51,150 nucleotides of DNA from Candidatus Nomurabacteria bacterium (GCA_029288805.1 JARIGO010000001.1:1-51150); one strand, 5' to 3'; positions 1,163 to 51,150 are shown, counted from the stretch's first letter. Made by a program: numbers and translations. The notes: generated by a model not told the origin, from the letters alone.

Positions 1163-1328
1163 TTATTTTTAAGATTTTTTGCGGTTGTACAGGTCGTCAT
1201 GCTCAGAGACTTTCATTAAAGGCTCTATCAAAATTTTTCTTTACAATACATTTTTTTTATTTTGTTACCATTGAAAATGCTTGCCAACAATATGATGCAC
1301 CCCGACTTTTTTGTATACTAAGTGCATT

Positions 1329-2600
1329 ATGGCAGTAACCCTCATCAGAAAACGAGACGAATCAGTTGCTGATTTTGATCGTTCACGTATCGAAAACGCT
1401 GTTGCGAAGGCATATGCGGCTGAAGGTACGCCTATTGATGAGATTTCTCTATCTATACTGGGTGACCGTGTCATGGTGATACTGGAACACACCTACGACG
1501 AGAAAAACATTCCTACAGTTGAAAACATTCAGGACGTTGTTGAACGTGAGATTGCCCGCAAAGGGGACTTTGAAGTGGCAAGAGCATACATTCTGTATCG
1601 TGAAGAGCGAAACAAGGACCGTAAGCGAGACGTTTTCAAGAAAAGACTGTCTTTGAAGCCCTACGAATACCCGGAGCTCTATGAATATGTCAGTGCCATC
1701 CGCCATTCATACTGGATCCATACCGAGTTTAACTTTGTTGGCGATGTCCAGGACTTCAAGGTTAATGTTGATGAGAAAGAGCGCAATGTCATCCAAAACA
1801 CCATGCTTGCTATCGCGCAGATAGAGGTAGCAGTCAAGACATTTTGGGGAGACATTTATAAGAAAATGCCCAAACCGGAGGTTGGTGCAGTCGGCGCTAC
1901 GTTTGCTGAAAGTGAAGTGCGACACACTGACGCATATGCTCACTTGCTCGAAATACTGGGGCTCAATGATGCCTTCAATAAAATAGACGAGATACCTGCT
2001 CTTATAAAGCGAGTGCACTATTTAGAACGAGCCTTATCCAATGCCAAAAGTGAGGATAACCGAGACTATAGCCAATCCATTCTCTTGTTCTCATTGTTTA
2101 CCGAGCACGTGTCACTCTTCTCACAGTTCCTGATAATGATGTCGTTTAACAAGCACAAGAACTTGTTCAAGGGCATATCAAATGCAGTCGAGGCAACTTC
2201 AAAGGAGGAACAGATACACGGCTTGTTTGGAATCGATATCATAAAGATAGTTAAGGAAGAGCATCCAGACTGGTTTGACGAAGAGTTCGAGGAACAAGTC
2301 ATCAAGATGTGTGAGGAAGCCTTCGAGTCAGAACAACAGGTAGTAGAATGGATATTTGAAAAAGGGGAAATCGAATTCATATCCAAAGCCGCTGTCATAG
2401 AGTTCATCAAGCAACGATTCAATAACTCACTGCACAGTATCGGTATCAAGAAAATCTTCACTACCGATGAGCAGCTTCTCAAAGAGTCAGATTGGTTTTA
2501 TGACGAAGTTATTGCCACAAAACACGGAGACTTCTTCAACAAAAAGTCGATTAACTACAACAAAAAGAACAAGAGCATTACGAGCGATGACCTCTTTTAA
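1329..2600 (+). CDS. nrdB: Ribonucleotide reductase beta subunit with N-terminal ATP-cone (class Id/NrdBi-like)
   Basis: N-terminus IRKRDESVADFDRSRIENAV...TVENIQDVVE...ARAYILYR is an ATP-cone. Ferritin-like ligands IAQIEVAVKTFW, EVRHTDAY, EHVSLFSQF, EEQIHG. Start moved from 1311 to ATG 1329 because TATACT lies at 1314-1319. Confidence 0.95.
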   Translation: MAVTLIRKRDESVADFDRSRIENAVAKAYAAEGTPIDEISLSILGDRVMVILEHTYDEKNIPTVENIQDVVEREIARKGDFEVARAYILYREERNKDRKRDVFKKRLSLKPYEYPELYEYVSAIRHSYWIHTEFNFVGDVQDFKVNVDEKERNVIQNTMLAIAQIEVAVKTFWGDIYKKMPKPEVGAVGATFAESEVRHTDAYAHLLEILGLNDAFNKIDEIPALIKRVHYLERALSNAKSEDNRDYSQSILLFSLFTEHVSLFSQFLIMMSFNKHKNLFKGISNAVEATSKEEQIHGLFGIDIIKIVKEEHPDWFDEEFEEQVIKMCEEAFESEQQVVEWIFEKGEIEFISKAAVIEFIKQRFNNSLHSIGIKKIFTTDEQLLKESDWFYDEVIATKHGDFFNKKSINYNKKNKSITSDDLF

Positions 2601-2622
2601 TAAAGAATTAAATTAAGAACAT

Positions 2623-4347
2623 ATGTATTGGTTAAATGAAACAAGTAGAAAATTTTTAGCAAAAGGCTACCTCGTGGGAGACATGACTGCCGAAGAACGC
2701 ATCCGTGAGATTGCGGAAATTGCAGAGCGTCATCTTAACAAGCCTGGCTTTGCTGACAAGTTCTACGATTATATGTCTCGTGGCTTTTATTCTCTTGCGT
2801 CTCCTGTATGGTCAAACTACGGTATGGAACGAGGTCTTCCAATCAGTTGTTTTGGTAGTTATGTTGCCGATGATATGTCTCGCATTCTCTACACCCATGC
2901 TGAGGTTGGCATGATGACCAAGTATGGTGGTGGGACATCAGCGTTCTTTGGGGGCTTGCGTCCTCGCGGTTCCATCATTAAAGATAATGGCCATTCTTCA
3001 GGTGCTGTGCACTTCATGGAACTCTTTGACAATCTTATTAACATCGTTAGTCAGGGTTCAGTGCGTCGTGGTCACGTTGCGCCGTATCTGCCGCTTGAAC
3101 ATGGTGATATTGAAGAATTTTTAAATATTGGTAAGGAAGGTCACCCAATTCAGGAGTCTACCTACGCTGTTACTGTAGGTGACAAATGGCTTAAGGAAAT
3201 GGTTGATGGAGACCAGGACAAGCGTCGCATCTGGGCAAAGGTTATTCAACGCCGAACAGAAATCGGATACCCGTACATTCTTTTTAGTGATACCGTGAAC
3301 AACAATACTGTTGACGTATACAAGGACAAAGGCATGAGAATTAATAACAGTAATCTCTGTTCTGAGATCTGTCTTCCTAACGGCGATGATATTTCATTCG
3401 TATGCTGTCTTTCTTCAATCAATCTCCGTCACTACCATGAATGGAAGGATACTGATGCAGTTGAAACACTTGCTATGTTCCTCGATACCGTTATTACCGA
3501 TTTCGTAAATCGTCTAGAAAGTTTCCGTGATAGCGCCGATGAACAGAAGCGTTCAGCATTCTACTTCATGCAGCGTGCACATAAATTTGCAAAAGAGCAC
3601 CGCGCCCTCGGGCTTGGTGTACTTGGATGGCATACATTCCTCCAGGAAAGTAACATTGCATTCGATAGTGCTGAAGCTGCAGTTTTGAATGAGGAAATAT
3701 TCTCATTGATCAAAGATCGTGCGTACAAGGCATCTGAAGACATGGCCAAGGAATATGGTGAACCAGAAGTATTGAAAGGTTATGGTCGCCGAAATACTAC
3801 CTTGCTTGCTGTTGCTCCTACAACATCATCTGCATTCATCTTGGGACAGGTATCTCAAAGTATTGAACCATTGATGTCTAACGCATTCGTTAAGGACGTG
3901 GACAAGATGAAGGTTACTATCAAGAATCCAACGCTCGAAGCCTTACTTGAAGAAAAGGGCATGAATACTACAGACACCTGGAACAGTATTCGTGACAATG
4001 ACGGCTCAGTGCAGCACCTTGATGGATTGACCGCTCATGAAAAGAGCGTATTCCGTACCTTTAGTGAAATTGACCAGAAGGCTATCATCGAACAGGCGGC
4101 AACACGTCAGAAGTACATTGACCAGGCACAGTCACTCAACATCATGATTGACCCAACAATGCCGGTAAAGGAATTGAATGCACTCTACCTTTACGCATGG
4201 GAGAAGGGAATCAAGACACTCTACTACCAGCACAGTATGAACGCCGCACAGCAATTCGGCCGAAAGAAGATGCAGGAGATAGAAACAAAGAAACCTAAGG
4301 TAGTCATTGTTGCACAAGAGACAGAATGTCTAACCTGTGAAGCATAA
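2623..4347 (+). CDS. nrdA: Ribonucleotide reductase alpha subunit, short form without ATP-cone
   Basis: GLPISCF, NSNLCSEI (catalytic N-x-C-x-E), LLAVAPTTSS, KTLYY, and C-terminal CLTC redox pair. Confidence 0.96.
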   Translation: MYWLNETSRKFLAKGYLVGDMTAEERIREIAEIAERHLNKPGFADKFYDYMSRGFYSLASPVWSNYGMERGLPISCFGSYVADDMSRILYTHAEVGMMTKYGGGTSAFFGGLRPRGSIIKDNGHSSGAVHFMELFDNLINIVSQGSVRRGHVAPYLPLEHGDIEEFLNIGKEGHPIQESTYAVTVGDKWLKEMVDGDQDKRRIWAKVIQRRTEIGYPYILFSDTVNNNTVDVYKDKGMRINNSNLCSEICLPNGDDISFVCCLSSINLRHYHEWKDTDAVETLAMFLDTVITDFVNRLESFRDSADEQKRSAFYFMQRAHKFAKEHRALGLGVLGWHTFLQESNIAFDSAEAAVLNEEIFSLIKDRAYKASEDMAKEYGEPEVLKGYGRRNTTLLAVAPTTSSAFILGQVSQSIEPLMSNAFVKDVDKMKVTIKNPTLEALLEEKGMNTTDTWNSIRDNDGSVQHLDGLTAHEKSVFRTFSEIDQKAIIEQAATRQKYIDQAQSLNIMIDPTMPVKELNALYLYAWEKGIKTLYYQHSMNAAQQFGRKKMQEIETKKPKVVIVAQETECLTCEA

Positions 4348-4658: not shown

Positions 4659-4701
4659 AAGGCTAGTATACGGATATTATGAGATAGCACAAGCTTAATT
4701 A

Positions 4702-5251: not shown

Positions 5252-5301
5252 ATTTTGGGGTGACTGGAAAAAAGGCACTAAAAATGCTATAGTACAGACC
5301 T

Positions 5302-7590
5302 ATGGCATTTTCACTACAATCATTATTTGACCGCGGACAGGTAAAAGGCTACCAGAGTAAGGCTCAAAAAATAGGCCAATTGGAGGAACGATTGACTGGT
5401 CTTACGGACGAGCAATTTCCGCTAGAAACGGAAGCGCTCAAGGCCCGATTGGCTCAAGGCGAAACCTTGAATGACATTTTGCCTGAAGCATTTGCGCTCG
5501 TTCGCGAAGCGGCAAAACGTACTATGAATAAGCGTCATTACGACGTGCAGCTTATTGGTGGTATGGTTTTGCACGAAGGTAAGATTGCAGAAATGCGTAC
5601 CGGTGAAGGTAAGACTATGGTCGCAACATTACCAGTATATTTGAACGCACTTGCTGGCCGCGGTGTACACGTTGTCACTGTTAACGACTACTTGGCACGT
5701 CGTGACGCAACATGGATGGGTCAGATTTATAATTTCCTCGGTCTTTCCGTTGGTATTATTAATGATCAAAACCAATCATTCGTATACGACCCTACGCATC
5801 AGGAGCTTGATGAGGAGCGCGATGAGGAAGGTTCATTCAAAGTTATCAAGCAGTTCCTCCGTCCTGTTACTCGCAAGGAAGCCTATCAAGCAGACATTAC
5901 ATACGGTACAAACAGTCAGTACGGTTTTGACTATCTTCGTGACAACCTCGTAAATACAAAAGAGGAAATCGTGCAGCGCGATCATTACTTTGCCGTTGTC
6001 GATGAAGTGGACTCTATTCTGATCGATGAGTCACGTACGCCATTGATCATTTCCTCTGCCATCGCAGAGTCAGAAGCGCTCTACAAGACCGTTCGCGACA
6101 TCGCCAACAAGATGGAGCCAGAAAAGGACTTTACTGTTGATGAGAAGCTTAAGGCGATCACATTGACTGATGATGGTATTACCAAGGCTGAAAAAATGCT
6201 TGGTATTGAAAACATGTATACCGAAAAGGGCATTAAGTATGCTCACTACCTTGAAACAGCGGTTCGCGCCCGAGCGCTCTTTATCAAGGATAAGGACTAT
6301 GTGGTTAAGGACGGGGAGGTAATCATTGTCGATACCTTTACTGGCCGCATGCAGCCAGGACGTCGTTGGTCAGAAGGATTGCACCAGGCTATTGAGGCAA
6401 AGGAAGGCGTGAAGGTTGAGCAGGAAACTCGTGCCGTGGCATCTATCACATACCAAAACTACTTTAAGCTGTACGAAAAGCTTTCTGGTATGACTGGTAC
6501 CGCCAAGACCAGTGAGGAAGAGTTCATGAAAGTGTATGGCTTGAGCGTAGTTACTATTCCTACTAATCGTCCCATACAGCGTATCGACCATCATGACCAG
6601 ATCTTCCAGACCGAAAACGGTAAGTTTGAAGCTATTGCTCGAAAGGTTAAGGAGCTCAATGCCACAGGTCAGCCAGTATTGATCGGTACTGTCTCTATTG
6701 AAAAGAACGAACTGTTGGCGGCCTATCTAAAACGTGCAGGTATTCCACATCAGGTATTGAATGCCAAGAATCACGAAAATGAAGGTTCCGTTATCGCTCA
6801 AGCTGGTAAAAAGGGCAATGTTGTTATTGCTACCAACTTGGCCGGTCGTGGTGTCGACATTATTTTGGGTGGTACGCCATCAACTCCAGAAGAACAGGAA
6901 GAGGTTAAGAAACTCGGTGGATTGTTTGTTATCGGTACCGAGCGTCATGAAGCGCGCCGTATTGATAATCAGCTCCGAGGTCGTAGTGGACGTCAGGGTG
7001 ACCCCGGCCAGACCCAGTTTTATGTGTCCCTCGAAGACGAACTGATGCGCGTCTTTGGTTCAGAACGCCTCAAGTCTATGATGACTCGCTTTGGCATGCC
7101 GGAAGACCAGCCTATTGTAAACGGCTTTGTTAGTAGCGCTTTGGAGTCTGCCCAGAAGAAAATTGAAGGTTTTCACTTCGATGCCCGTAAGAATACCTTG
7201 GAATACGATACTGTATTGTCATATCAGCGAACTATCATCTATGATCGCCGTCGCGCCATGGTTATGGGGGACAGAGGTCACGTTATGAGTAGTTTCTATG
7301 CCTTGGGTGATATGGAGACTCTGGAACCGATCGTAAAGGAGAAAATCGCCTTGGTAGGGGAAGATGCATTCTGGGAACAGGTTCGTCGCGTTGTTCTGTA
7401 TACCACTGATACTTTGTGGGTAGAACACATTGATACCATGGAACATATGCGTCAATCAGTTGGATTGCGTGCCTACGGCCAGCGTGAACCGCTTGTTGAA
7501 TACAAAAAAGAGTCTACTCGGCTCTTTAAGGAGATGGAACAGCGCTTGAAAGACCAAGTAATCACAATGGTTAGTGCCATTTCTAAGTAA
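5302..7590 (+). CDS. secA: Preprotein translocase ATPase SecA (C-terminally shortened)
   Basis: EMRTGEGKT Walker A, VTVNDYLARRDA, DEVDSILIDE, ATNLAGRGVDI, RRIDNQLRGRSGRQGDPG. Confidence 0.98.
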   Translation: MAFSLQSLFDRGQVKGYQSKAQKIGQLEERLTGLTDEQFPLETEALKARLAQGETLNDILPEAFALVREAAKRTMNKRHYDVQLIGGMVLHEGKIAEMRTGEGKTMVATLPVYLNALAGRGVHVVTVNDYLARRDATWMGQIYNFLGLSVGIINDQNQSFVYDPTHQELDEERDEEGSFKVIKQFLRPVTRKEAYQADITYGTNSQYGFDYLRDNLVNTKEEIVQRDHYFAVVDEVDSILIDESRTPLIISSAIAESEALYKTVRDIANKMEPEKDFTVDEKLKAITLTDDGITKAEKMLGIENMYTEKGIKYAHYLETAVRARALFIKDKDYVVKDGEVIIVDTFTGRMQPGRRWSEGLHQAIEAKEGVKVEQETRAVASITYQNYFKLYEKLSGMTGTAKTSEEEFMKVYGLSVVTIPTNRPIQRIDHHDQIFQTENGKFEAIARKVKELNATGQPVLIGTVSIEKNELLAAYLKRAGIPHQVLNAKNHENEGSVIAQAGKKGNVVIATNLAGRGVDIILGGTPSTPEEQEEVKKLGGLFVIGTERHEARRIDNQLRGRSGRQGDPGQTQFYVSLEDELMRVFGSERLKSMMTRFGMPEDQPIVNGFVSSALESAQKKIEGFHFDARKNTLEYDTVLSYQRTIIYDRRRAMVMGDRGHVMSSFYALGDMETLEPIVKEKIALVGEDAFWEQVRRVVLYTTDTLWVEHIDTMEHMRQSVGLRAYGQREPLVEYKKESTRLFKEMEQRLKDQVITMVSAISK

Positions 7591-8655: not shown

Positions 8656-9075
8656 TTAATGATTCATAAAGGAAACGTCTGAAGCAATACTGAAAGAAAA
8701 ATTTTGGAAAAGGCTCAGTTGATCTTTTTTACGGGGCTTGGCTGGTTTGCGGGTGAGTATTTCAATGTATTTTTCATAAAAGGGGATTATGGATTTAAGG
8801 GTGGCCCACATTTCGTTGGTTATTGAAATCCCATCTTTATGCTTTGATCTCTTTTTATAAGAATTCAGCAGTTTGCTAAAAATCTTTCTTCTTATAGCAC
8901 TTTTTTCTGGTTTTGATTGCCAGTCCATAACTCTTATAAGAAAGTCTAAGGCATCCTTTTCTTTGGGCAGTATGTTTTTTGTTAATGAATCAATAATGAG
9001 TTCTTTGATCTCAGCGAGGGTCGGTTTTTTGTTGGTTTTCATCTCGTACTGGTTTGTTTGAATGCAGTATAGCAT
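8656..9075 (-). CDS. Hypothetical basic protein (true start probably MKTNKK at ~9042)
   Basis: Own promoter (minus strand TTGACT-16 nt-TGnTATACT, 9067-9094) and own terminator. No recognisable motif. Confidence 0.65.
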   Translation of the reverse strand: MLYCIQTNQYEMKTNKKPTLAEIKELIIDSLTKNILPKEKDALDFLIRVMDWQSKPEKSAIRRKIFSKLLNSYKKRSKHKDGISITNEMWATLKSIIPFYEKYIEILTRKPAKPRKKDQLSLFQNFSFSIASDVSFMNH

Positions 9076-9107
9076 CTATTGACAAAAAGTCAAGTTTTAG
9101 ATGTAGT

Positions 9108-12100: not shown

Positions 12101-12311
12101 CATAGGCTTCGACTCCAACAATAGGCTTTATGCCGGCCTTTCTGCATTCATTATAAAATTCGATAGCACCATACATGGCACCGTGGTCAGTAAGCGCAAG
12201 CGCAGGCATGCCAAATTCCTTCGCTCGTTTTACGAGATCCTGTACTTTTGACAATCCATCCAAGAGGGAATAGTGAGAGTGAGTGTGCAAATGCACATAT
12301 TGAGGCTCCAT
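9108..12311 (-). CDS. dnaE: DNA polymerase III alpha subunit
   Basis: HLHTHSHYSLLDG PHP domain, RGSAAGSLVSY, PDIDLD, KFDMLG, FAAYGFNKAHAASY, and C-terminal OB fold. Confidence 0.98.
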   Translation of the reverse strand: MEPQYVHLHTHSHYSLLDGLSKVQDLVKRAKEFGMPALALTDHGAMYGAIEFYNECRKAGIKPIVGVEAYVAERSRFDKEPGIDSKRYHLTLLAKNNAGYKNLMKLVSKANLEGYYYKPRMDAELLELHSEGVICLSGCPGSRFINYLKNDNKAEAKNLLQWYVKTFGKENVYVEVMHHEDVDWYMPLIPTIVEIAQELDLPLVGTWDSHYLHVDDKEAQDTLVAINTGTEVGNAKMSMKAGNYSFINAAEAMEIFKDVPGAVENTVKLAETVNLEIEMAPWKFPTYPIPEGKTYDQVLRENVELGIQEKNYEMTEEVRTRIEFELDVISQKGFPSYFLVEADLVHAARDMGIYTNTRGSAAGSLVSYLTGITTVDPIKYKLPFERFLNPLRPGIPDIDLDIADDRRDDLIGYARQKYGMGAVAQICTFGTMAARGSVRDVARALGYPYSVGDTISKLIPMGSQGFPMTIDHALEIVPELQEMYDTDRGTKEIIDMAKKIEGNVRHVSVHAAGVVIAPTPDITDYTPIQYDTKGEGKIITQYDMFSGGRDGVVNLPKFDMLGIRNLQFISGTVERVKAIRGIDIDMDNIPLNDPKVFSMLSRGETMGVFQMAGDGMTSNIKMLQPTKLEDLMAMVALYRPGPMEVIPEYIKRKKNPHLVTYPDPRLKDDLEASYGLLVYQDDVLLTSIRLAGYTWLDADKFRKAMGKKIPAEMAEQKDKFYKGCKEYGGLSIPQIDDLWKKIEPFAAYGFNKAHAASYGMVAYQTAYLKANFPAEYLSACMTAESGDIETCSEYIAEANRMGYPVLPPNINESFSDFTVVVENGIVTRNIRFGLKNIKNFGEEIGKFIIEERKARGLFTSIEDFLERVQHRNLNKKSLEALIMCGAMDDFGERGVLCANIENLLAFHKGISQFSNSGHVSLFDGLEDKPKSVLKMDPAQPASLRQKLEWEKELLGLYISGHPLDSHADKLKKATTTISTLIKKKFDKNQLIVAHIDQARVIMTKKDNSKMAFLTIQDKSARAEAVVFPEAFKKIGSLIKEGAVAAMKCSIAQRGDKPTIMIDDIKIL

Positions 12312-12359
12312 GGTGCCTGTAGTATAGCAGCGAGCGATAAGGTTTGTTATATTGACACT

Positions 12360-12965
12360 ATGAAATGGGTTATTGGAATAGATGAGGTGGGCAGAGGGCC
12401 GTTTGCAGGACCGGTGACGGTATGTGCCGTAGCCATGCCTCAGGGTGCGTATAAAAGGGTATTGGCAAGCAATACGTGGAATGGTCTGACTGATTCCAAG
12501 AAGTTGAAGGAGAAGGATCGTGAGTTGTGGGCTGAAGCAGCGCGCGCCTTAGCAAAAGAAGCGAGCGCGCTGCGTATCGCCACCGCTTCTCGTACCGCCA
12601 CCGCAATAGACAAGAAAGGCATCGCAGTGTGCATTCGTGAATGCATTGCGGCAAACCTGAAAAAGCTTCAATTGGATCCCAAGGACTGTGTGGTCTTGCT
12701 TGATGGAGGTTTGAAAGCACCGGCGGAATACAAAAACCAAACTACTATTATAAAAGGAGACTTGCATGAGAAAATTATTTCTCTGGCATCAGTCGTTGCA
12801 AAGGTGCAGCGCGATCATTACATGATCGCGCTGCACAAAAAACACCCTGCCTACAACTGGCAGCAAAACAAAGGCTATGGCACATTAGGGCACAGAACTG
12901 TAATAAAAAAACGGGGTCTGACCCCATTTCATCGCAAGAGTTTTATCAAAGCATTACCACAGTAA
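12360..12965 (+). CDS. rnhB: Ribonuclease HII
   Basis: IGIDEVGRGPFAGPV, DSKKL, IIKGD, ASVVAKVQRD, NKGYGT..H, HRKSF. Start at ATG 12360, 6 nt after TGnTATATT. Confidence 0.96.
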   Translation: MKWVIGIDEVGRGPFAGPVTVCAVAMPQGAYKRVLASNTWNGLTDSKKLKEKDRELWAEAARALAKEASALRIATASRTATAIDKKGIAVCIRECIAANLKKLQLDPKDCVVLLDGGLKAPAEYKNQTTIIKGDLHEKIISLASVVAKVQRDHYMIALHKKHPAYNWQQNKGYGTLGHRTVIKKRGLTPFHRKSFIKALPQ

Positions 12966-13658: not shown

Positions 13659-14299
13659 ATTGGCAGGTGGATAAAGAATGGCGCATGTGGGGAGGTAAAG
13701 TTGTGTACCAATGCCAACACTGCCAAAGCCATAATAAGGATACCGATAATTTTATTCAATGCCACGGCCTTTTCATATCGCTTGCGTTGTGTGAAGGCAA
13801 TGTATGCTAGGACTGACCACCAAATAAATGCTCCAATAAAAAATCCGATGGCTACTTGGGCACGGGTAAACAATGGCTGGTCAATAAAACGGTTCAAGAA
13901 TAGACCGATAACGCCGAATGCCAAGTATGTAGAGGGATTGGTTAGCGCCAGCACAATAGAAGCGAAAAAATGCTTATGCCATGGCAAGTCTCGCTCGATA
14001 GTTTTCAAAGGGTCAGCCAATATCATGCGTAGACCATAAAAGAATACGATGAGACTGCCAATGATAAAGAGCCAGTTTGGTATGTGATAAAGACTTGTGC
14101 GGGAATGGTGTAGTCCTAAAAGAATGACAAGTGTTGCTGCGGTATCAATCAATGCAATTGCCAAGCCGGAAATAATACCAGCGCGAAGGCCGTGGTTGAC
14201 AGTTCGCTTCATAGTAATCAGTGCCACTGGGCCAAGAGGGAGGGAGATAATTATACCGATACCGATGCCCGATAGCAGACCAAGAAGGGATATATACAT
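13655..14299 (-). CDS. LysE-family translocator
   Basis: SLPLGPVALITMKRTVNHGLRAG and LALTNP, with about six TM segments. Confidence 0.85.
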   Translation of the reverse strand: MYISLLGLLSGIGIGIIISLPLGPVALITMKRTVNHGLRAGIISGLAIALIDTAATLVILLGLHHSRTSLYHIPNWLFIIGSLIVFFYGLRMILADPLKTIERDLPWHKHFFASIVLALTNPSTYLAFGVIGLFLNRFIDQPLFTRAQVAIGFFIGAFIWWSVLAYIAFTQRKRYEKAVALNKIIGILIMALAVLALVHNFTSPHAPFFIHLPI

Positions 14300-14305
14300 A
14301 AAAAC

Positions 14306-14749
14306 CTATTTTACTACAATTTGTCGGTATTCTCGACTGATAAAAAAGACCGTAATAACATTCACTACCAGTAACAGGATAGTGAACCAGGAAAAACTTT
14401 TGAACAATGTCACTATTTGATACAGACTGAAGCCTCCAAGCAGCACGATAGCCAATGGATAGGCCCAGAGACGGTTGGTCCATAATCCCCATACCAAAAT
14501 GAGCTTCACAATGCCGTGACTGAAAAAATATACAATGCCCATAGTCTGGTTTTGGGCTGAGATACTAAGAATAACCTTCTGCAAAATAGCAGAGAAAGGA
14601 TAATGTGAAAAATAAAGATATGCAGTGATACGCTGCTGGAAGACAAAGAATAGCCCTGCAAAAATATCTGTTATGGCAATACAGCCGTTAACGATAATGG
14701 TTGCAAAAAACGCCTTATGTAATAATTCATCCTCCTCTGTGGTTTCCAT
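14306..14749 (-). CDS. DUF2127 membrane protein
   Basis: YFFSHGIVKLILVWGLW..RLWAYP motif. Confidence 0.8.
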   Translation of the reverse strand: METTEEDELLHKAFFATIIVNGCIAITDIFAGLFFVFQQRITAYLYFSHYPFSAILQKVILSISAQNQTMGIVYFFSHGIVKLILVWGLWTNRLWAYPLAIVLLGGFSLYQIVTLFKSFSWFTILLLVVNVITVFFISREYRQIVVK

Positions 14750-14800
14750 GTATTATTACCAGTATACCGCATATTCAGTTTTTCGTAGTATTATGAATAT

Positions 14801-15247
14801 ATGGACATTCGAACCGCCCTCAAAAAACATTGGACCGTTATTGCCATTATAGGGTTGATATTTGTGCTGTTCTTTGAGGCACAGTATTTTATTCATTCTG
14901 TTGAGCACTTTTATTCGCAAGGTGAACTTCGTCCCATGTATCGCCACCGCGAAACCGAAATAGTTCCGCAGGCATCTCCGTCTGCCAAGGCCACCATTGC
15001 AACAGTAAAGAACGTTACAGTTACTCCTACGCTTAATGCCAGTAGCATTCAGTTGTGGATGACGTTTGACTACATCAATGTCGTGTGTAAGTTGCCAACA
15101 AATTATTTGAAAGATATTCTCGGCGCCAATGATCCACGGTATCCTAACGTGCGACTCGACACGTATGCGACTCGTAGCGGTATTGATCCGCAGGTCTTGC
15201 TCCGCACTGTGCAGCAGTATGTTGCCTCATATCAGAATACTCATTAG
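14801..15247 (+). CDS. Hypothetical membrane-anchored protein
   Basis: N-terminal TM and a WMTFDYIN motif. Cotranscribed with DedA. Confidence 0.7.
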   Translation: MDIRTALKKHWTVIAIIGLIFVLFFEAQYFIHSVEHFYSQGELRPMYRHRETEIVPQASPSAKATIATVKNVTVTPTLNASSIQLWMTFDYINVVCKLPTNYLKDILGANDPRYPNVRLDTYATRSGIDPQVLLRTVQQYVASYQNTH

Positions 15248-16942: not shown

Positions 16943-16979
16943 TATTTCACATTTTCCAGAAAAACAGTATGATTATGGT

Positions 16980-18464: not shown

Positions 18465-18468
18465 TAGT

Positions 18469-35669: not shown

Positions 35670-35709
35670 CTTTAAATAAAATTGAGCGCTCTTTTTGTAT
35701 AGTCACCAT

Positions 35710-36389: not shown

Positions 36390-36479
36390 GGCAGCACAGA
36401 TTTATTGACTTTTAATAATATTGTGATATAATGATACTGATAATAAACCAATAGATCTTTAACATAAAACTTAATAACC

Positions 36480-38220: not shown

Positions 38221-38356
38221 ATTTTCTTCAGCGTTTGGTGCCTGAGGAAGGTTATTCCAAAAGGGAATGGCTAATACTCTATATATTTGAGTGGCATTAC
38301 ATTACCATATATATGTATGTTTGGCTAGCATGCCAGTTTTTTGGTATAGTACAACC

Positions 38357-38992
38357 ATGGTTATTACGTATTTCGGCAAATCTTATTTTAAACTGACATT
38401 AGGAGATCTTACTATTGCTATTAATCCTCCTGCAAAGGACAGCAAGGCATTTACAAAAGTGCCACGTTTTGGTGCCGACATAGCGCTTGTTACTACCAAT
38501 ACTATTGATACCAATGGTGTAGATACTGTTTCTTTGGGAGATAAGGAGCCGTTTGTTATGGATGGTCCGGGCAACTACGAAGTACGTGAATTGATGTTTA
38601 CTGGTGCTCCAAGTACCACTACTGTTGCAGGCAAGGAATATCAGAACACTGTATTTGGCTTTGAGCTTGATGGTATTAAAATTGTTTTCCTCGGCTTGCT
38701 CGTTGATGACAAGATGATGTCTTCAGAAGCAAAGGAGCTAGCTTCAAATGCAGACATGATTTTTGTACCAGTTGGTGGAGACCTTGATCTTACTCCCGCA
38801 AAGGCATACAAGACTGCGGTGTCATTTGATCCTAACGTTATCGTTCCATATGAATACAATGCCGCAACATTGCAGCAGTTTCTTAAGGAAGGAGGACAGG
38901 ATAAAAACAAGGCCGAAGAAAAAGCTACCCTAAAGCGCAAGGATCTTGATGGCAAGGAAGGATATATTTTGCTATTAGAAGCCCAAGGATAA
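38357..38992 (+). CDS. MBL-fold metallo-hydrolase-like protein (Lactamase_B_3 type)
   Basis: ITYFGKSYFKL, IAINP, DGPGNYEVR, VPVGG, AYKTAVSFDPNVIVP. Start ATG 38357, 6 nt after TGnTATAGT. Confidence 0.75.
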   Translation: MVITYFGKSYFKLTLGDLTIAINPPAKDSKAFTKVPRFGADIALVTTNTIDTNGVDTVSLGDKEPFVMDGPGNYEVRELMFTGAPSTTTVAGKEYQNTVFGFELDGIKIVFLGLLVDDKMMSSEAKELASNADMIFVPVGGDLDLTPAKAYKTAVSFDPNVIVPYEYNAATLQQFLKEGGQDKNKAEEKATLKRKDLDGKEGYILLLEAQG

Positions 38993-39199: not shown

Positions 39200-39218
39200 G
39201 CTATAATATAGATACTAT

Positions 39219-41678
39219 ATGGCTAAAAAAGATACAGCCGCACAGGCAGTCCCAACAGAACCGCGTCAAAGCGTTATAGCGGTTAATATCGTAAAGGAAA
39301 TGCGTGAGTCTTTTATTGACTATGCCATGTCAGTTATTACTGACCGTGCGCTTCCTGATGTTCGTGACGGTTTGAAACCAGTGCACCGACGTATTTTGTA
39401 TTCAATGTATGAAAACGGTCTCACTGCTACCGCAAAGTTTCGTAAGAGTGCAACCGTAGTCGGTGATGTGCTTGGTAAGTATCACCCTCATGGTGATAGT
39501 TCTGTGTATGAAGCCATGGTAAAAATGGCGCAGGATTTCTCAATGCGCTATCCGTTGATCCAGGGTCAGGGTAACTTCGGTTCCATTGACGGAGACCCGG
39601 CTGCTGCGATGCGTTACACCGAGGCTCGCATGTCTAAGATCACTACTGAGCTTTTGCGCGATCTCGAAAAAGACACTGTAGACTTCCGTCCAAACTATGA
39701 CGCCAGTCGCAAGGAGCCATCAGTACTTCCTGCTGCCGTACCAAACCTATTGCTTAACGGTACGCTTGGTATTGCCGTGGGTATGGCAACCAATATTCCT
39801 CCACACAACCTCGGAGAAATCATCGATGCCTGTCTTCATCTTATAGAGAACGATAATGCTACGAATGAAGACCTCGCTGAAATTGTGCAAGGTCCGGATT
39901 TCCCAACAGGAGGTTTGGCATTTAACAAAGCAGATATTTTGCATGCTTCTTCTACTGGACGTGGAGGAGTGGTGTGTCGTGGTGAAGCTGAAATTGCAGA
40001 ACTAAAAAACGGCTCATACCAAATCACTGTTACTTCATTGCCATACCAGGTAAACAAGGCAACATTCGTTGAATCAATCGCAAGTTTGGTGCAGGAAAAG
40101 AAGCTGGAAGGCATCAAGGCATTGGACGAGCTTTCTACCAAGGACATGCGCGTGGTTATTACGCTTAAGGCAGGCGTTAATCCGCAAAAGGTCCTCAACT
40201 TTTTATACAAGCATACGCAGCTCGAACAGACATTCCACTACAACATGGTGGCGCTCGTAGATGGTGTACCACAGACACTTTCAATGAAGTCTATTTTGAC
40301 TGCATTCATTGCGCACCGCGAAGTCGTCATTCGTCGTCGTACTGCATTTGACCTGCAGAAGGCAAAAGACCGTGAGCACATTTTGCTTGGTTTGAAGAAG
40401 GCGCTTGATCATATCGATCGCGTTATCACTATCATCCGTGAATCAAAGGATGCTGCTGTTGCAAAGGTAAACTTGATCAAGGAATTTAAGTTCTCTGATT
40501 TGCAAACAACCGCTATTTTGGAAATGCGTTTGCAAAAGCTTGCTGGTCTTGAACGCAAGGCTGTAGAACTCGAACTCAAAGAGAAGCAGGATCTCATTGC
40601 AGAGCTTGAAGCATTGCTTGCAAGTACAAAGAAAATTTTCAAGGTTATCTCTACTGAACTTTCTGAAATCCGTGAGAAGTATGCCGATGAACGCAGAACA
40701 AAGATCGTAAGCAGTGGCAATAAGGTCATTTCCGATGAAGACCTTATTCCAGAAAAGGATTCTGTGTTGGTATTTACTGCTGGTGGCTACGTGAAGCGCA
40801 CTGATCCAACAGAATACAAGATCCAAAAGCGTGGCGGTGTTGGTGTTGTTGATCTTGAAACAAAGGAAGAAGACTTCGTTACTATTTTGCTGACAACTGA
40901 TACGCACAGTGACTTGCTCTTCTTCACCAATCGTGGAAAGGCATATCAGATTAAGATGTATGAGCTTCCAGAAGGAAAGCGTGCTACCAAAGGTAAATCC
41001 ATCATGAACTTCTTGTCACTTGCGGGAGACGAAAAGGTGACATCTATTCTTGCCGTGCCAAAGAAATTGAAAGAGGAAAAAGCATCATTGATGCTCGTAA
41101 CAAAACAGGGAACTGCAAAGAAGATTTCATACGATAGTTTCAAGGATGTTCGTCGCAGCGGTATCATCGCCATTCGTCTTGAAGACAATGATGAGCTTGA
41201 AGCGGTATTGCGCGTACAAAAAGGCAGTAGTGTCATTTTGGCAACGTCACTCGGCCAGTCTATTCGCTTCGATGAGTCAGATATCCGTGAAATGGGACGC
41301 ACCGCTGCAGGTGTTCGTGCCATGAAGCTCGGTAAGGGAGATGTCATCATCGGTGCTGATGTTGTGACAACTGAAGACAATACATTCGTGCTCGCTATGA
41401 GTGCCAGTGGTATCGGAAAGAAAACTGCCATGAGTGAATACAAGATTCAAAAGCGCGGCGGTTCTGGTATCAAGACTACAAAGGTTACTGCCAAAACTGG
41501 TAACCTTATGGTGGGTAAAGTGGTGCAGAACGATATGGAGCTTGTGGCTATGTCAAAGAAAGGCCAAGTCATCCGCGTTGACCTCAACACCGTCCCTTCA
41601 AGTGGCCGCCAAACACAAGGCGTGACCATCATGAAGTTGCGCGCAGGAGATTCTCTCGCATCTGTTACCTGTCTCTAA
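39219..41678 (+). CDS. gyrA: DNA gyrase subunit A
   Basis: [34 protein letters not shown] (catalytic Tyr), GyrA-box QKRGGVG, and beta-pinwheel repeats. Confidence 0.98.
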
Positions 41679-41723: not shown

Positions 41724-41778
41724 ATTTTTTCTTCGACAAACGATAGCTTCGAATATATATTCACGTTATACTTATTGC

Positions 41779-42303
41779 ATGTTCATGGATCCTGTCAAAG
41801 TATTGGCGGCTTGTAATATACAGTCAACAAATACCATCGCTGATTTTGGGGCCGGTAGTGGTTTCGTATCACGAGCTGCCGCGACACTTGCACCGCAAGG
41901 ACAGGTCTTTGCTATTGAAATCAATCGCGAGCTTGTAACCCGTCTTACTCGCGAAGTGCAAGAGCATACTGTACCCAACCTTCATGTCCTATGGGGAGAC
42001 GTAGAAATTCCTGAAGGAACAAAATTGGCAAAAGAAAGTGTTGATATCGTTCTATGCTTTAACGTGCTGTTCATGCTTGATGACAAAGCTGGTGTAGCAA
42101 AGGAAGCCTATCGCGTATTGAAACCCGGTGGAAAAATTTTGGTGGCTGACTGGACTGAATCATTCGGGGGATTAGGGCCACGACCGCACCACATCTTTAC
42201 GCAAGCAGCAGCTGAAACACTATTAACGAGTGTCGGATTTAAGAAATTAAATGGCAATATACCGGCAGGTGAGCATCACTATGGTATACTTTTTGAGAAA
42301 TAA
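41779..42303 (+). CDS. Class I SAM-dependent methyltransferase
   Basis: IADFGAGSG, RVLKPGGKILVADW. Confidence 0.9.
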   Translation: MFMDPVKVLAACNIQSTNTIADFGAGSGFVSRAAATLAPQGQVFAIEINRELVTRLTREVQEHTVPNLHVLWGDVEIPEGTKLAKESVDIVLCFNVLFMLDDKAGVAKEAYRVLKPGGKILVADWTESFGGLGPRPHHIFTQAAAETLLTSVGFKKLNGNIPAGEHHYGILFEK

Positions 42304-43992: not shown

Positions 43993-44003
43993 TACGTTAT
44001 ACT

Positions 44004-44480
44004 ATGAAGGTCATGAGAAAATCATTTTTGGTATTAATCGCACTGTTTTTTGTACTCGGTACCAGTCTGCCTGCGTCATTAGCGTACGGAGACAGTTCTG
44101 CTTCACCATTAAATGGCAACCCTACTAATCCTTCCACAGCTTCACCATTAAACGGTACGGGCAACGCTGCTACTCAGCAACCTGCTGGCCAGCCTTTGAA
44201 CATCCATCTCACCAATCCACTTGCCGGATCAGGTGTTACTGACATTCCTTCAGCAGTAAACAAGATCCTGACGGTAGTCATTAAGATTGCATTACCACTC
44301 ATCATCATTATGTTCATCTGGTCAGGTATTACCTTCATCTTTGCACGTGGTAATCCTAAGAAACTTGAGGATGCAAAGAGAATGTTCCTCTATACCATTA
44401 TCGGTACGTTGCTCATTCTCGGAGCATGGACCATTACTAACGCCCTTATCGGAACAGTTAATTCAATCATCACCCCATAA
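44004..44480 (+). CDS. TrbC/VirB2-like pilin 2 (start possibly 44013)
   Basis: LTNPL, IWSGITFIFARGNPKKLEDAK, IIGTLLILGAWTI. Confidence 0.85.
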   Translation: MKVMRKSFLVLIALFFVLGTSLPASLAYGDSSASPLNGNPTNPSTASPLNGTGNAATQQPAGQPLNIHLTNPLAGSGVTDIPSAVNKILTVVIKIALPLIIIMFIWSGITFIFARGNPKKLEDAKRMFLYTIIGTLLILGAWTITNALIGTVNSIITP

Positions 44481-46964: not shown

Positions 46965-48057
46965 GTTCCGCCTCCTCTCTTTTACGCGCCCTGAAGACGT
47001 CTTTCCCTGCAACTTTTTCTGCAGATTCGAACATTTTCTCAAGGATAGTCGCGCCTATGGTTTTAGTTTCATGGTTTGCTTCAACAAGCATATTGGCCCT
47101 AGCGGCTTTAACCTTTGCTTCACCTTCATAAATTGTTGCAGCAACTTTAGTAACAGGATCAAAAAAAGAATCAATCTCAATTACATTCATTTCTGCCACA
47201 GCCTTTGCATCGTTAATTTCAGTTATGCGTTCCTGCACTCTGACATTTTCCTGTGCCTGCTGATTTAATGCTTCTTGCACCAAATCCTGCTCTTCCTTCT
47301 TGCGGTCATAATATTCATTGGTGTCTGCACCAGCGATCTTATTGAGGGCAATAGTGTGTACAACGCAGCCAAAGGGCTTAACTTTTGCATCAAGGTATTC
47401 CTTCATGTGAACATTTCCCTCAAAACAGATGTCTTTCTTTATGTCATCTATATCGAGTATCCTGATCTCCTCAACTCCTTTTTGGGCAGCCCACGGTCCT
47501 ATCTTTGACTGTAGGTCAATTTGACCGATCATCTTAAAGTCTGGTCGGCCAATTGGGCCCATGTCATCGATGATTTCGTAAATTACGGTGAAATCAAAGT
47601 TGTAGCTAAGTGTCTCTTTGGTCTTAACATCAATGAGGTAATTTACAGGCTCCCATATCAAATATGACGGAACTCGTTCATCACGCTCTGCAAAGATCAT
47701 TGTTGCCTTAGGGTCAACAGGCCGAGGATTTTTGAATTTCTTCTCGTCTGTTGCTCCTATTGTTTCGTTTGAACGATTTGCTGGAACAACCTCCGTCCAG
47801 TTTAGTGGAGGGTGGATTGGTTTGAATCCCAGCGGAAAGGGGATTTTAGAAAGCCACCACGGCAGTCTTTTTTGCTGCCGTTTGTCTACCCTGATGGAAC
47901 CGAGAATTCTTTTCCCGATACCCCAATAGTAAATATGGCCTTCTTCTGTACTAAGCGGTCTGCCTGGCAGATAGCCGGTACTAGTGTATGCAGCAATTAA
48001 TAGGCCGAAGTCTATAATCCCTGCCACAATGTGTGAAAAAAACAGTGTTAATAGCAT
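46954..48057 (-). CDS. SPFH/Band-7-like membrane-anchored protein
   Basis: N-terminal TM, beta-rich core (YNFDFTVIYEIID), and Ala/Glu-rich coiled tail. Own promoter TTGACA (48129-48134)-17 nt-TAAAAT (48106-48111). Confidence 0.55.
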   Translation of the reverse strand: MLLTLFFSHIVAGIIDFGLLIAAYTSTGYLPGRPLSTEEGHIYYWGIGKRILGSIRVDKRQQKRLPWWLSKIPFPLGFKPIHPPLNWTEVVPANRSNETIGATDEKKFKNPRPVDPKATMIFAERDERVPSYLIWEPVNYLIDVKTKETLSYNFDFTVIYEIIDDMGPIGRPDFKMIGQIDLQSKIGPWAAQKGVEEIRILDIDDIKKDICFEGNVHMKEYLDAKVKPFGCVVHTIALNKIAGADTNEYYDRKKEEQDLVQEALNQQAQENVRVQERITEINDAKAVAEMNVIEIDSFFDPVTKVAATIYEGEAKVKAARANMLVEANHETKTIGATILEKMFESAEKVAGKDVFRARKREEAEHAK

Positions 48058-48224
48058 AGTTATTTAATTGTTAAGTTGCAAATTTTGTGAATTAATTTTG
48101 ATTATATTTTAGCACAAATATGTCAAATTGTCAATGAAGAAGAAACGAATAAAAAGCTTACGAAATAAGCTTGAAAGGGAAGCGCAAATACTGTATTATG
48201 AATCCTACGTGTTGTGTCCAAAGT

Positions 48225-48991: not shown

Positions 48992-50479
48992 TTACTTCGT
49001 TACAAATATAAACGCTTCCAATATGTCACCTGGTGCAATATCGTTTTTACATTCTACCAAGATACCGCATTCGCCTTCGATCACTTCCTTAACCTTATGC
49101 TTTGCCTGCTGCAATTCTACAACGGTACCAGTAGTAAGGGGGAAGTCACGACGTACGACAGTAACCTTTGCACCGTCAGTAATGCTACCAGAGTCCACGC
49201 GACAACCAAGGACCTGACGCTCCTTTGTCTTTGAAAATGTCTTCAGTACTTTTGCGGTACCAATAACTTCACGAGTTTCTACGCGAGGGCGACGCTTTTC
49301 GAGTTCCACTTCCAACCATTCAGTTAGTTTGTAGATGATGTCGAATGTTTCGATAGTAGCACCAACCTTTTCCTGAATGTCACGAGCGCGAGCATCCATG
49401 CCAACGTTGAATCCAAGAATGATAGTGTCCTTGTCAGACTGCGCCTGCTTGATGTCAGTTTCGCCAATGGCACCGATACCTTTGGTAACGATCTTGATAT
49501 GAAGTCCCTCAATGTTCATTTTTTTGATTTCCTTTTCTACAGCTTCAACAGTTCCGTATACATCGGCTTTGATGATAATAGGTACCACTTTCTGGCCATC
49601 TTCCGGACGAGCTTCCTTGCTGTAGTCACTGGTCGAACGCTCTTCAATATAATCCTCAGCGTCACGCTTCTTGTCAAAGACAGCAACTGGCACGCCAACT
49701 TCTGGCAATGAATCAAAGCCAACGAGCTGCACAGGAGTACCTGGATCTGCGTCATTAATGGTCTTTCCCAAGAAGTTTTCCATAATGCGAGTAGTAGTGA
49801 TGGCAGTACCAGCTACAACAAACTGACCCTTTTTTAAGGTTCCATTTTTTACTACCAATGTTGCCGCAATGCCGCGCTTCGGATCAAGACGAGATTCAAT
49901 GATGATGCCTTCAGCGTTTTGTTTTGGGTTGGCTGTCAGTTCTTCAAGGTCAGCTACGAGCAAAATAGTCTCGAGCAGGTCGTCGATGCCTTCACCGGTC
50001 TTTGCAGAGATGGCATTCCAGGGAATAGAACCACCGTATCCTTCTACGAGCACTTCGTTTTCAGCGAGCATTTGTTTTGCCTTATCAATGTTCGCACCGG
50101 GCTTATCGATTTTGTTGATAGCAACAATAAAAGGAATGCCTGCATTGCGAATGGTATTCAAGGCTTCAATAGTCTGAGCCTTAACGCCGTCTTCTGCTGA
50201 CACAACAAGAATGGCAATGTCTGCCGCTACAGCACCGCGTTCGCGCATGCCGGTAAATGCAGCGTGACCAGGAGTATCCAAAAAGGTGATACGACGATCG
50301 TTACCTTGATAGGGAATGCTGATTTCGTATGCACTGAGGTGCTGCGTAATACCACCGGCTTCACCAGCGGTTACGTTTGCCTTGCGGATATAGTCCAGCA
50401 ATGTTGATTTACCATGGTCGATGTGACCCATGACGGCTACAATTGGAGGGCGGGCGTTTGTTGTGTTTGTATCATTCAT
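48992..50479 (-). CDS. infB: Translation initiation factor IF-2 (no N-terminal domain)
   Basis: RPPIVAVMGHIDHGKSTLLD, EAGGITQH, DTPGHAAF, NKID, IIKADVYGTVEAV. Confidence 0.97.
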   Translation of the reverse strand: MNDTNTTNARPPIVAVMGHIDHGKSTLLDYIRKANVTAGEAGGITQHLSAYEISIPYQGNDRRITFLDTPGHAAFTGMRERGAVAADIAILVVSAEDGVKAQTIEALNTIRNAGIPFIVAINKIDKPGANIDKAKQMLAENEVLVEGYGGSIPWNAISAKTGEGIDDLLETILLVADLEELTANPKQNAEGIIIESRLDPKRGIAATLVVKNGTLKKGQFVVAGTAITTTRIMENFLGKTINDADPGTPVQLVGFDSLPEVGVPVAVFDKKRDAEDYIEERSTSDYSKEARPEDGQKVVPIIIKADVYGTVEAVEKEIKKMNIEGLHIKIVTKGIGAIGETDIKQAQSDKDTIILGFNVGMDARARDIQEKVGATIETFDIIYKLTEWLEVELEKRRPRVETREVIGTAKVLKTFSKTKERQVLGCRVDSGSITDGAKVTVVRRDFPLTTGTVVELQQAKHKVKEVIEGECGILVECKNDIAPGDILEAFIFVTK

Positions 50480-50952
50480 ATGTCTAGTGGTTTCTTAGCT
50501 TCGGTAAGCGCTTCTTGTTCTTCGGTCGTTAGTGATGTTTCAGGTTTTCCCTCAATTACTTTTTTTGCATAGACGCCAACGTGATTGCGATTGGTAATGA
50601 CAGAGAGAACATATCCGTCACCGTATTCATCGAGCAATCCAGAAGCAAAACTTTGTTCGCCGCCAGCATTGTCATACGCATCGTACTTGATAAGAGAGTA
50701 TCCTCGAATACTGCGCTTTACGCGACTATCAATAAATTCTAGTCCTTCTTTATGGGCACCCAAGGTTTGTTGAATATCTGAGACGCTGCTGGTAAGGTCT
50801 GAAAGAGTAGTTTCAAGGTTAGCACCGTCTTTGCCGTTCATAAAAATGCGAAGTTTCTTTTGGAGGGTTACAACCAAATAAATTAGTACTCCGACGGCGA
50901 TTATCAATACAATGACAACGCCGATAAGAATCGGTGCTATACTTTGTCCCAT
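50476..50952 (-). CDS. DUF4446-like protein
   Basis: N-terminal TM, coiled coil, KYDAYDNAGGEQSFA..LLD..GDG.VLS. Start ATG 50952. Confidence 0.8.
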   Translation of the reverse strand: MGQSIAPILIGVVIVLIIAVGVLIYLVVTLQKKLRIFMNGKDGANLETTLSDLTSSVSDIQQTLGAHKEGLEFIDSRVKRSIRGYSLIKYDAYDNAGGEQSFASGLLDEYGDGYVLSVITNRNHVGVYAKKVIEGKPETSLTTEEQEALTEAKKPLDI

Positions 50953-50975
50953 AGGCAGCAATTATACTATATTTT

Positions 50976-51150
50976 ATGGATTTTTTCAAGATTTCCTCAA
51001 AACGTCATCCACAGTCAAGAATCTATCTGGACTACGCTTCCAGTACACCGCTTGACCGAACAATGCTTGCGGATTTTCCACGGATTGAAGACAGCGTGCT
51101 TCAGGCCAACCCCAGCGCATTGCACAAGGAAGGAGTGGCAGCCCGGGGGG
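50976..51150 (+). CDS. iscS: Cysteine desulfurase (IscS/NifS family), 5' part only, not in ORF track
   Basis: Translates to MDFFKISSKRHPQSRIYLDYASSTPLD...ANPSALHKEG. IYLDYA.STP and NPS.LH are family motifs. Confidence 0.88.
   Translation, partial: MDFFKISSKRHPQSRIYLDYASSTPLDRTMLADFPRIEDSVLQANPSALHKEGVAARG

Follow-up and report, generated by a model that had tools for sequence, protein, structure and literature searches.

In a 51,150-nt stretch of DNA from a Candidatus Nomurabacteria bacterium (GCA_029288805.1 JARIGO010000001.1:1-51150; hereafter, the window), 24 of the ~56 protein genes (gene census annotated with Pfam) carry a promoter -10 box only 6-11 nt ahead of their ATG, and we reason, at a probability of roughly 80%, that leaderless or near-leaderless mRNAs are made from most of these 24 genes. 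The motif and its position, its enrichment statistics and conservation, the loss of the anti-Shine-Dalgarno (anti-SD) core from the 16S rRNA and the absence of SD signals ahead of the genes were all observed directly, and the pattern as such lies far beyond chance.

Every hexamer and spacer that an earlier, sequence-only reading of the window had listed is present in the DNA as it described, and five additional genes (LysE, DUF2127, hyp148, hyp230 and the pilin-like gene at 44013) fit the same pattern. The sites (with the spacer in nt between hexamer and ATG) are as follows:

1314..1331, + strand: nrdB (ATP-cone fused), TATACT (1314-1319), spacer 9, ATG 1329
5285..5304, + strand: secA, TGcTATAGT, spacer 8, ATG 5302
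12309..12329, - strand: dnaE, TGcTATACT, spacer 9, ATG 12311; PHP domain from residue 7
12345..12362, + strand: rnhB, TGtTATATT, spacer 6, ATG 12360; divergent from dnaE, 48 bp ATG to ATG
14297..14313, - strand: LysE-family gene, TAAAAT (weaker, off-consensus), spacer 8, ATG 14299; internal promoter, 6 nt past DUF2127
14747..14766, - strand: DUF2127, TATACT, spacer 11, ATG 14749
14789..14803, + strand: hyp148, TATTAT, spacer 6, ATG 14801; divergent from DUF2127, 51-bp gap
16968..16982, + strand: dinB, TATGAT, spacer 6, ATG 16980; IMS domain from residue 11
18457..18471, + strand: YdeI/OmdA, TACAAT, spacer 6, ATG 18469; box within the 3' end of DUF5946
19364..19381, - strand: RibD_C (DHFR-like), TGcTATACT, spacer 6, ATG 19366
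21194..21211, - strand: CDF transporter, TGaTATACT, spacer 6, ATG 21196
21722..21739, - strand: HIT, TGaTATACT, spacer 6, ATG 21724
23007..23022, + strand: hyp230, TACTAT, spacer 7, ATG 23020
31123..31138, + strand: hpf, TATAAT, spacer 7, ATG 31136
32315..32332, - strand: fmt, TGcTATATT, spacer 6, ATG 32317; Pfam domain from residue 1
35031..35052, - strand: lepB, TGcTATACT, spacer 10, ATG 35033; first gene of the lepB-hisS-def operon
35066..35083, + strand: pth, TGgTACAGT, spacer 6, ATG 35081; divergent from lepB, 47-bp gap
35698..35712, + strand: RAYT/IS200-like gene, TATAGT, spacer 6, ATG 35710
38342..38359, + strand: MBL-fold gene, TGgTATAGT, spacer 6, ATG 38357
39202..39221, + strand: gyrA, TATAAT, spacer 11, ATG 39219
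41767..41781, + strand: methyltransferase, TATACT, spacer 6, ATG 41779
43998..44015, + strand: T4SS-pilin-like gene, TATACT, spacer 9, ATG 44013
50950..50966, - strand: DUF4446, TATAAT, spacer 8, ATG 50952; heads DUF4446-infB-rbfA
50963..50978, + strand: iscS-like gene, TATACT, spacer 7, ATG 50976; its -10 overlaps that of DUF4446 by 4 bp, 23 bp ATG to ATG

Many of the gene starts are independently supported at the sequence level, by Pfam domains that begin at residues 1-11 (in Fmt, Pth, HPF, DnaE, DinB, RibD_C and MBL) and by tblastn alignments to relatives that begin at residue 1. The boxes had been described as mostly first-in-operon, which by spacing applies to 19 of the 24; the remaining five (LysE, YdeI, CDF, hpf and pilin2) are internal, at 4-26 nt past a same-strand gene. 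In the neighbouring genes CDF and HIT, promoter and start together form a 26-nt repeat (AACCTGATATACTTnCnTCATGG; 21190-21215 and 21718-21743, 88% identical), which suggests that so compact a promoter-start cassette can be duplicated.

Among the curated starts, TATANT was encountered at spacers of 6-11 nt (the full range, with a mode of exactly 6 nt) in 18 of 53 cases, as opposed to 10 among 2089 other ATGs (binomial p ~1e-28). The comparison with shuffled upstream regions, named in the sequence-only reading as a check, gave a mean of 1.2 and a maximum of 6 hits in shuffled 40-mers, versus the 18 observed. A start-agnostic test (TATANT ahead of any ATG opening 80 codons or more) returned 8, 1, 2, 5, 1 and 2 cases at spacers 6 to 11, over a background of ~0.5 per offset between -30 and +60, and by a start-neutral rule (a box before an ATG within the first 40 codons) 38% of the long open reading frames (ORFs) in the window were positive, as compared with 10% in the interior control. 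Stop-codon bias was rejected as the source of a TANNNT signal, being irrelevant for TATANT, which holds no in-frame stop at spacer 6.

The 24-site matrix yielded the consensus TGnTATA(C/A)T, inclusive of features that lay outside the selection criteria (hexamer T3 in 20/24 and A4 in 21/24; upstream T in 15/24 and G in 15/24), and TG at -15/-14 accompanied 10 of 23 proximal hexamers, versus 6.5% of all such hexamers (p 7e-7). The statement that a -35 box is mostly not evident held, as the mean best -35 match (2.79) differed little from that of shuffled sequences (2.56; p 0.13), and a neutral scan of the window for full -35/-10 promoters found no excess (15 vs 19.5 expected). A cryptic -35 was rejected on these two grounds. 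Matched at the sequence level, the hexamers are extended -10 elements (TGn, with a presumably dispensable -35).

The pattern recurs among relatives. Within loci L001-L055 (orthologous regions, so that the counts do not represent independent genes) TGNTATANT was followed by an ORF-opening ATG 13, 7, 9, 4 and 5 times at spacers 6-10, over a background of 0.63. The start-neutral rule, expressed as box versus interior control, gave 19% vs 6% in close relatives, 11% vs 3% in distant Parcubacteria and 2% vs 1% in Flavobacteriia; the latter (loci with an ATP-cone NrdB, used as outgroup control) showed no -10 peak beside their ATGs in spite of a lower G+C content. At the level of single genes, almost all relatives with a readable start region retain the extended -10 of secA at a distance of 8-11 nt from the ATG, the dnaE orthologs in L017 and L019 have TGnTATAAT at spacers of 7/8, and nrdB possesses either a -10 at 8-12 nt or one about 38 nt upstream. 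Moreover, hisS and def, which are internal in the window, have a close -10 of their own in relatives where they come first in the unit. Judged by these sequence comparisons, the start-proximal -10 pattern is real and clade-wide.

The same box also precedes genes that are not translated:

4384-4660, minus strand: RNase P RNA gene (predicted)
4661..4670, minus strand: TATACT box, 4 nt ahead of the 5' end predicted for the RNase P RNA

Additional -10 boxes were found 21-33 nt before tRNA genes, and the presence of the motif ahead of both RNase P RNA and tRNA genes implies that it acts in transcription. From the 17 copies of TGNTATANT in the window, 14 occupy promoter-compatible positions (9 at 6-10 nt from an ATG, 4 before leadered genes and 1 before tRNA-Asn), with 3 unexplained. 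TATANT is ~7-fold denser in intergenic DNA than in genes, where it is depleted (58 observed vs 93+-10 expected from codon-shuffled genes), as would be anticipated if a -10 box on its own is enough to initiate transcription. On this sequence evidence, the box is a promoter and not an RNA-level signal. Directly upstream of the RNase P RNA promoter lies a perfect 23-nt inverted repeat with a 50-nt loop (4702-4797), which accounts for spurious matches to miRNA precursors in this segment.

The window begins with the final 525 nt of a bacterial 16S rRNA gene, the 3' end of which is altered:

512..525, + strand: 16S rRNA 3' tail, GGAUUAACUCAAAU in place of GGAUCACCUCCUUU, anti-SD core CCUCC absent (Rfam SSU alignment)

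E. coli has GGAUCACCUCCUUA where this tail has GGAUUAACUCAAAU, and CCUCC was likewise absent from each of the relatives with conserved 16S-nrdB synteny (33/33, with variants such as AAUUCAAUUUGAG), in agreement with the earlier remark on a missing anti-SD. Having lost CCUCC, no gene can use SD pairing. SD motifs had been called essentially absent, and indeed SD-like tetramers stand at 3 of 56 starts, versus 8.6% of random ATGs, without a positional peak; nor do GGAGG, GGAG and GAGG peak at any position ahead of ORF-opening ATGs, whether in the window or in 650 kb of relatives. An unbiased k-mer search recovered nothing complementary to the altered tail, and found only A-richness at -14..-2 (A about 40%) and a T in position -1 for 54% of the starts. 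A substitute ribosome-binding site (RBS) pairing with the altered tail was rejected, as no tail-complementary 5-mer is enriched in the -20..-1 region of box-less starts; the k-mers that are enriched there trace to one conserved hairpin element and to general A-richness. The only strong SD-like site is GAGGAGG, 6 nt upstream of hyp253 (ATG 46964; 46964-46980, minus strand) and inside the end of the upstream gene, and it may be a product of chance or the relic of a transferred gene.

The tail that replaces the anti-SD is self-complementary (CUCA-AAU-UGAG, 512-535), and covariation is seen in relatives (UCCA/UGGA in L026, UUCA/UGAA in L065 and AUUCA/UGAGU in L013; L001-L065 compared). A hairpin of at least 4 bp is possible in 15 of 17 distinct tails, versus 8.5+-1.9 in shuffles, with weak stabilities of about -2 kcal/mol. 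It may belong to the 16S precursor, rather than to the mature 3' end.

The -10 hexamer occupies positions -12 to -7 relative to the transcription start (+1). Thus, a spacer of 6 places +1 on the A of the ATG, and spacers of 7-11 imply leaders of up to about 5 nt. The suggestion that these mRNAs begin on the AUG or no more than a few nt from it agrees (for predicted 5' ends) with the spacer mode of 6, and needs amending where spacers of 8-11 imply leaders of 1-5 nt instead of none. We infer the transcription start sites (TSSs) from the canonical distance between -10 and +1, and the initiation pathway is likewise a deduction from sequence. Five of the 8 divergent gene pairs have ATG-ATG gaps of 23, 37, 47, 48 and 51 bp, which (with the DUF4446 and iscS boxes overlapping by 4 bp) leave no room for leaders. 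Leaderless translation requires an ATG start; ATG opens 24/24 box-proximal genes, and the only two GTG starts of the window belong to leadered genes. Altogether, the predicted leaderless share comes to 24 of 39 genes that are first in their transcription unit (about 60%).

In the mechanism that we envisage, sigma-70-type extended -10 elements working without a -35 box would drive these units, with RNA polymerase starting on the A of the ATG (spacer 6, the commonest) or 1-5 nt before it (spacers 7-11). Ribosomes with fMet-tRNA and initiation factor 2 (IF2) would bind the 5'-terminal AUG directly, by analogy with E. coli, Mycobacterium, Deinococcus and archaea. Genes further down the operons would be translated via coupling or re-initiation at stop/start junctions (-11 to +8 nt), and the minority units, with -35/-10 promoters and A/U-rich or structured leaders, would have to rely on an accessible start region. 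The IF2 encoded by infB (48992..50479, minus strand; ATG overlapping the DUF4446 stop as ATGA) has 495 aa, no N-terminal extension and a GTPase domain from residue 13, which squares with its earlier description as minimal; a link between the short IF2 and leaderless initiation is plausible from its sequence.

Several points weigh against such a reading. The 5' ends of the 24 genes are predictions, and at 10 of the 24 sites the spacer measures 8-11 nt, for which either a 1-5-nt leader or an unusual TSS distance is needed. A few sites depend on weaker hexamers (TAAAAT, TATTAT, TACTAT, TATGAT), the starts of RibD_C, pilin2, MBL, YdeI and rnhB were picked among nearby in-frame ATGs (partly guided by the motif), and upstream promoters could possibly give rise to extra leadered isoforms. 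Leaderless 5' coding regions show as much structure as those of the remaining genes (Mann-Whitney U test, p about 0.75), a non-discriminating outcome: in leaderless and other genes alike, the first 30-60 nt carry less structure than gene interiors, and lower 5' structure as a mark of leaderless mRNAs was rejected because the classes do not differ. Leaderless initiation as the default for core genes, as formerly proposed, survives as a tendency, given that pyk and the S1-like gene are leadered and that many accessory or unknown genes are leaderless.

The boxes could be real and the genes nonetheless also, or mainly, transcribed from further upstream, so that leadered mRNAs dominate. This agrees with the -10 about 38 nt upstream of nrdB in many relatives, with a second TGcTATACT 32 nt upstream at iscS and with the 5 of 24 sites that lie just past same-strand genes, where read-through is possible. 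We consider it unlikely, since divergent pairs with 23-51 bp between their ATGs have no space for upstream promoters except inside the neighbouring gene, neither a -35 nor a second -10 is enriched upstream, and the motif is otherwise avoided in genes.

Alternatively, UAUAMU might be read by the ribosome or by S1 as an RNA-level SD substitute or A/U-rich enhancer, without being a promoter. An organism devoid of anti-SD needs some start-site signal, and the motif is A/U-rich and as near to the AUG as an RBS would be; however, it is absent from operon-internal starts, precedes RNase P RNA and tRNA genes, bears the TG extension that characterises contacts with sigma region 3.0, agrees with TATAAT at its invariant A2/T6, keeps the canonical distance of 6 nt to a purine +1, and is not complementary to the 16S tail (no tail-complementary k-mer being enriched), all of which renders this explanation highly improbable. 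Even less credit, verging on none, can be given to the idea that the pattern is an artefact, produced by the way start codons were chosen or by the A+T-rich make-up of intergenic DNA: some starts were indeed chosen among nearby in-frame ATGs and the intergenic DNA is A+T-rich, but the start-agnostic offset profile has the same peak, shuffled upstream regions fall far short of the observed count (1.2 vs 18), starts are backed by Pfam N-termini, and the Flavobacteriia, of lower G+C, show no peak. Leaderless or near-leaderless mRNAs are hence the reading that we retain for most of the 24 genes.

Next to the 24 box-proximal genes, 17 were classified as operon-internal and 15 as leadered or unclear. 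Most operon-internal starts (13/17) fall between -11 and +8 nt relative to the stop codon upstream (ATGA or TAAnATG junctions), a layout that fits translational coupling or re-initiation. Five genes had been credited with full -35/-10 promoters, and four of them (20164, 36480, hyp128 and hyp367) do have one; gene 7891 is without a nearby -35/-10. The four are:

9040..9093, - strand: hyp128, leadered, TTGACT-16-TGcTATACT, 23 nt to ATG 9042; conserved in L007
20111..20166, + strand: hyp134, leadered, TTGACT-17-TAGAGT, 24 nt to ATG 20164
36405..36482, + strand: hyp172, leadered, TTGACT-16-TGaTATAAT, 47 nt (80% A+T) to GTG 36480
48055..48134, - strand: hyp367, leadered, TTGACA-17-TGcTAAAAT, 48 nt (83% A+T) to ATG 48057

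Standing 23-48 nt before the start codon, these promoters imply leaders of about 16-41 nt, mostly A/U-rich, and the promoters of PRTase and pyk resemble them. Thus, as far as promoter sequences tell, -35 boxes go with leaders and leaderless genes use extended -10 boxes.

Gene 7891 (secreted glucosaminidase-like) instead has a GC-rich hairpin, GAAGUUCC-UCCGG-AGCUNAA-CCGGA (7863-7890, + strand), 3-4 nt before its ATG. Across 17 relatives the element, for which Rfam returned no match, hardly varies, and one of its base pairs covaries (U-A to C-G in 3 sequences); it may represent a cis-regulatory leader. The leader of the S1-like gene (ATG 38165; 38166-38300, minus strand) is strongly structured (minimum free energy -39.4, z -3.6), comprising a 10-bp terminator-like hairpin (38197-38173) and a U-run that ends 4 nt before the ATG; its sequence makes it a candidate attenuator or autoregulatory leader. 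Known riboswitches or small RNAs were rejected for the long leader of 7891, for 29493-30047 and for 4661-5301, with only sub-threshold chance matches or none.

The host, an uncultured and ultra-small bacterium, was placed by locus identity, 16S-nrdB synteny and a 16S insertion as a Nomurabacteria/Paceibacteria-type genome of the Candidate Phyla Radiation (CPR), an assignment made at the sequence level. A genome scan with the NrdB protein matched mostly metagenome-assembled genomes (MAGs) of Patescibacteria (CPR), with the closest loci (62-87% identity, syntenic for 16S-nrdB) titled mostly Ca. Nomurabacteria, Paceibacteria and Minisyncoccia, and a sizeable minority of them titled uncultured Ca. 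Saccharibacteria. The 16S-DUF192-nrdBA order is kept in many relatives. The 16S gene bears a 146-nt A+T-rich insertion (~22-167, Rfam SSU alignment), typical of CPR, and the lack of a 23S gene within 50 kb after it establishes that the rRNA genes are unlinked. The scan also matched Flavobacteriia with the same ATP-cone NrdB (61-65% identical; L058-L080 compared), which suggests a transfer of NrdB between the CPR lineage and Flavobacteriia. In the window (1329-4347) it is nrdB that encodes the N-terminal ATP-cone, and NrdA is without one.

Pfam annotation agreed with the gene names proposed in the sequence-only reading (NrdB, SecA, DnaE, DinB, HPF, Fmt, LepB, Pth, GyrA etc.); the annotated products also include NrdA, RNase HII, YdeI/OmdA, RibD_C, CDF, HIT, Def, HisRS, IS200/RAYT-like, MBL-fold, methyltransferase, DUF4446 and RbfA, accompanied by five tRNA genes. 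Four or five small T4SS-pilin/TrbC-like genes cluster after a solute-binding protein gene (43594-46145). An unannotated 36-codon, lysine-rich ORF (MAAKKKVAKKKVAKK...; 5086-5196, + strand), with TAACTT at a spacer of 7 upstream and a terminator hairpin after it, may encode a small basic protein. The 555-nt gap between tRNA-Asn and pyk (29493-30047), without Pfam or Rfam matches, holds relatively G+C-rich ORFs that are not protein-like, a TATACT at 29558-29563 (+ strand) and an internal hairpin (aaaaaccctgc...gcagggtttt), and may be the site of an unrecognised RNA gene. The IS200/RAYT-like gene has a copy of the palindrome CTAGGAATTTCCTAG on either side (35646-35679 and 36353-36386). A 39-nt repeat (ATTTGCTCCGAATGGTGGAGGATGTTCGAA...) occurs three times, at 21797-21835, 28467-28505 and 29013-29051; two copies flank the small gene hyp141, downstream of a GtrA-like gene ending at 28446, and the third is contained in the 3' end of the GT2-GtrA gene.

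Leaderless mRNAs are in the majority, and SD pairing is weak or absent, in archaea of GeneMarkS-2 group D (Haloferax, Sulfolobus) and in mammalian mitochondria. Both differ from the present case in their initiation factors and signals: archaea have TATA/BRE elements ~26 nt upstream and mitochondria process polycistrons, whereas here a bacterial -10 box is used.

Among bacteria, the closest counterpart is group C of the GeneMarkS-2 survey, in which a Pribnow box stands 6-8 (about 10) nt from first-in-operon starts (Actinobacteria, Deinococcus-Thermus; PMC6028130). Leaderless operons typically reach 25-50% in this group (167 of 262 genes in D. deserti), with the remaining genes using SD (PMC6028130). 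Like group C members (Mycobacterium tuberculosis, Deinococcus deserti), the window combines a localised Pribnow box with a large leaderless share (24/39 units). Unlike them, it has lost the anti-SD and shows no detectable SD or substitute, where group C keeps the anti-SD and uses SD at leadered and internal genes; furthermore, its promoters are extended -10 boxes without -35 and its lineage is CPR, which is unmentioned in that survey's account (PMC6028130). Bacteroidetes (group B; Flavobacterium johnsoniae, PMC6847099) are similar in leaving SD unused and in having A-rich, unstructured starts, a feature that may apply to the leadered minority here. In contrast to our case, they retain the anti-SD, have ordinary leaders and place an A-rich motif before all genes, within those leaders, the motif described here being limited to unit-first genes and also preceding RNA genes.

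On the rRNA side, the window resembles the Parcubacteria known to lack the anti-SD, sharing their phylogenetic neighbourhood and the loss of CCUCC at the 16S 3' end (PMC9297842, PMC10783764). Tsurumaki et al. 2022 detected the anti-SD in only 48% of Parcubacteria, with SD helices thought not to form (PMC9297842), and a 2024 survey counted Ca. Campbellbacteria and Ca. Wolfebacteria among 'SD-scarce' organisms without CCUCC (PMC10783764). Loss of uL1 has been reported to overlap with the lack of anti-SD in Parcubacteria (the rplA region lies outside the window). In the passages searched, both papers deal with the rRNA side only, describing neither promoters at the ATG nor coupling junctions nor -35-less promoters, and the term 'leaderless' was not found in the searched part of PMC9297842. 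Our search, of incomplete coverage and hence not proof of absence, found no published account of leaderless architecture in CPR/Parcubacteria. It therefore seems that a known (group C-like) leaderless architecture is present in a lineage where it is seemingly undescribed, with the loss of anti-SD as the notable difference.

More tentatively, and at somewhat less than even odds, the whole Parcubacteria/Paceibacteria subgroup has abandoned SD pairing, with most units leaderless from a ~15-bp TGnTATAMT-N6-ATG cassette and the rest served by operon coupling. Under this clade-wide reading, the former anti-SD tail may have been folded into a small covarying hairpin. If true, it would constitute a bacterial initiation regime convergent with those of archaea and mitochondria, gene callers that expect an RBS would misplace starts in such genomes, and 70S-type, leaderless-first initiation would have a natural model in this lineage. 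The annotation of start codons and operons in CPR MAGs should use a leaderless model. It is predicted, moreover, that a bare -10 box suffices for transcription, which would explain why the motif is avoided in genes. The searched passages of the two anti-SD papers do not say how such Parcubacteria find their start codons, and the architecture described here offers a concrete and testable answer. It also points to a way in which a bacterium with a reduced translation apparatus could drop SD pairing entirely, as mitochondria did.

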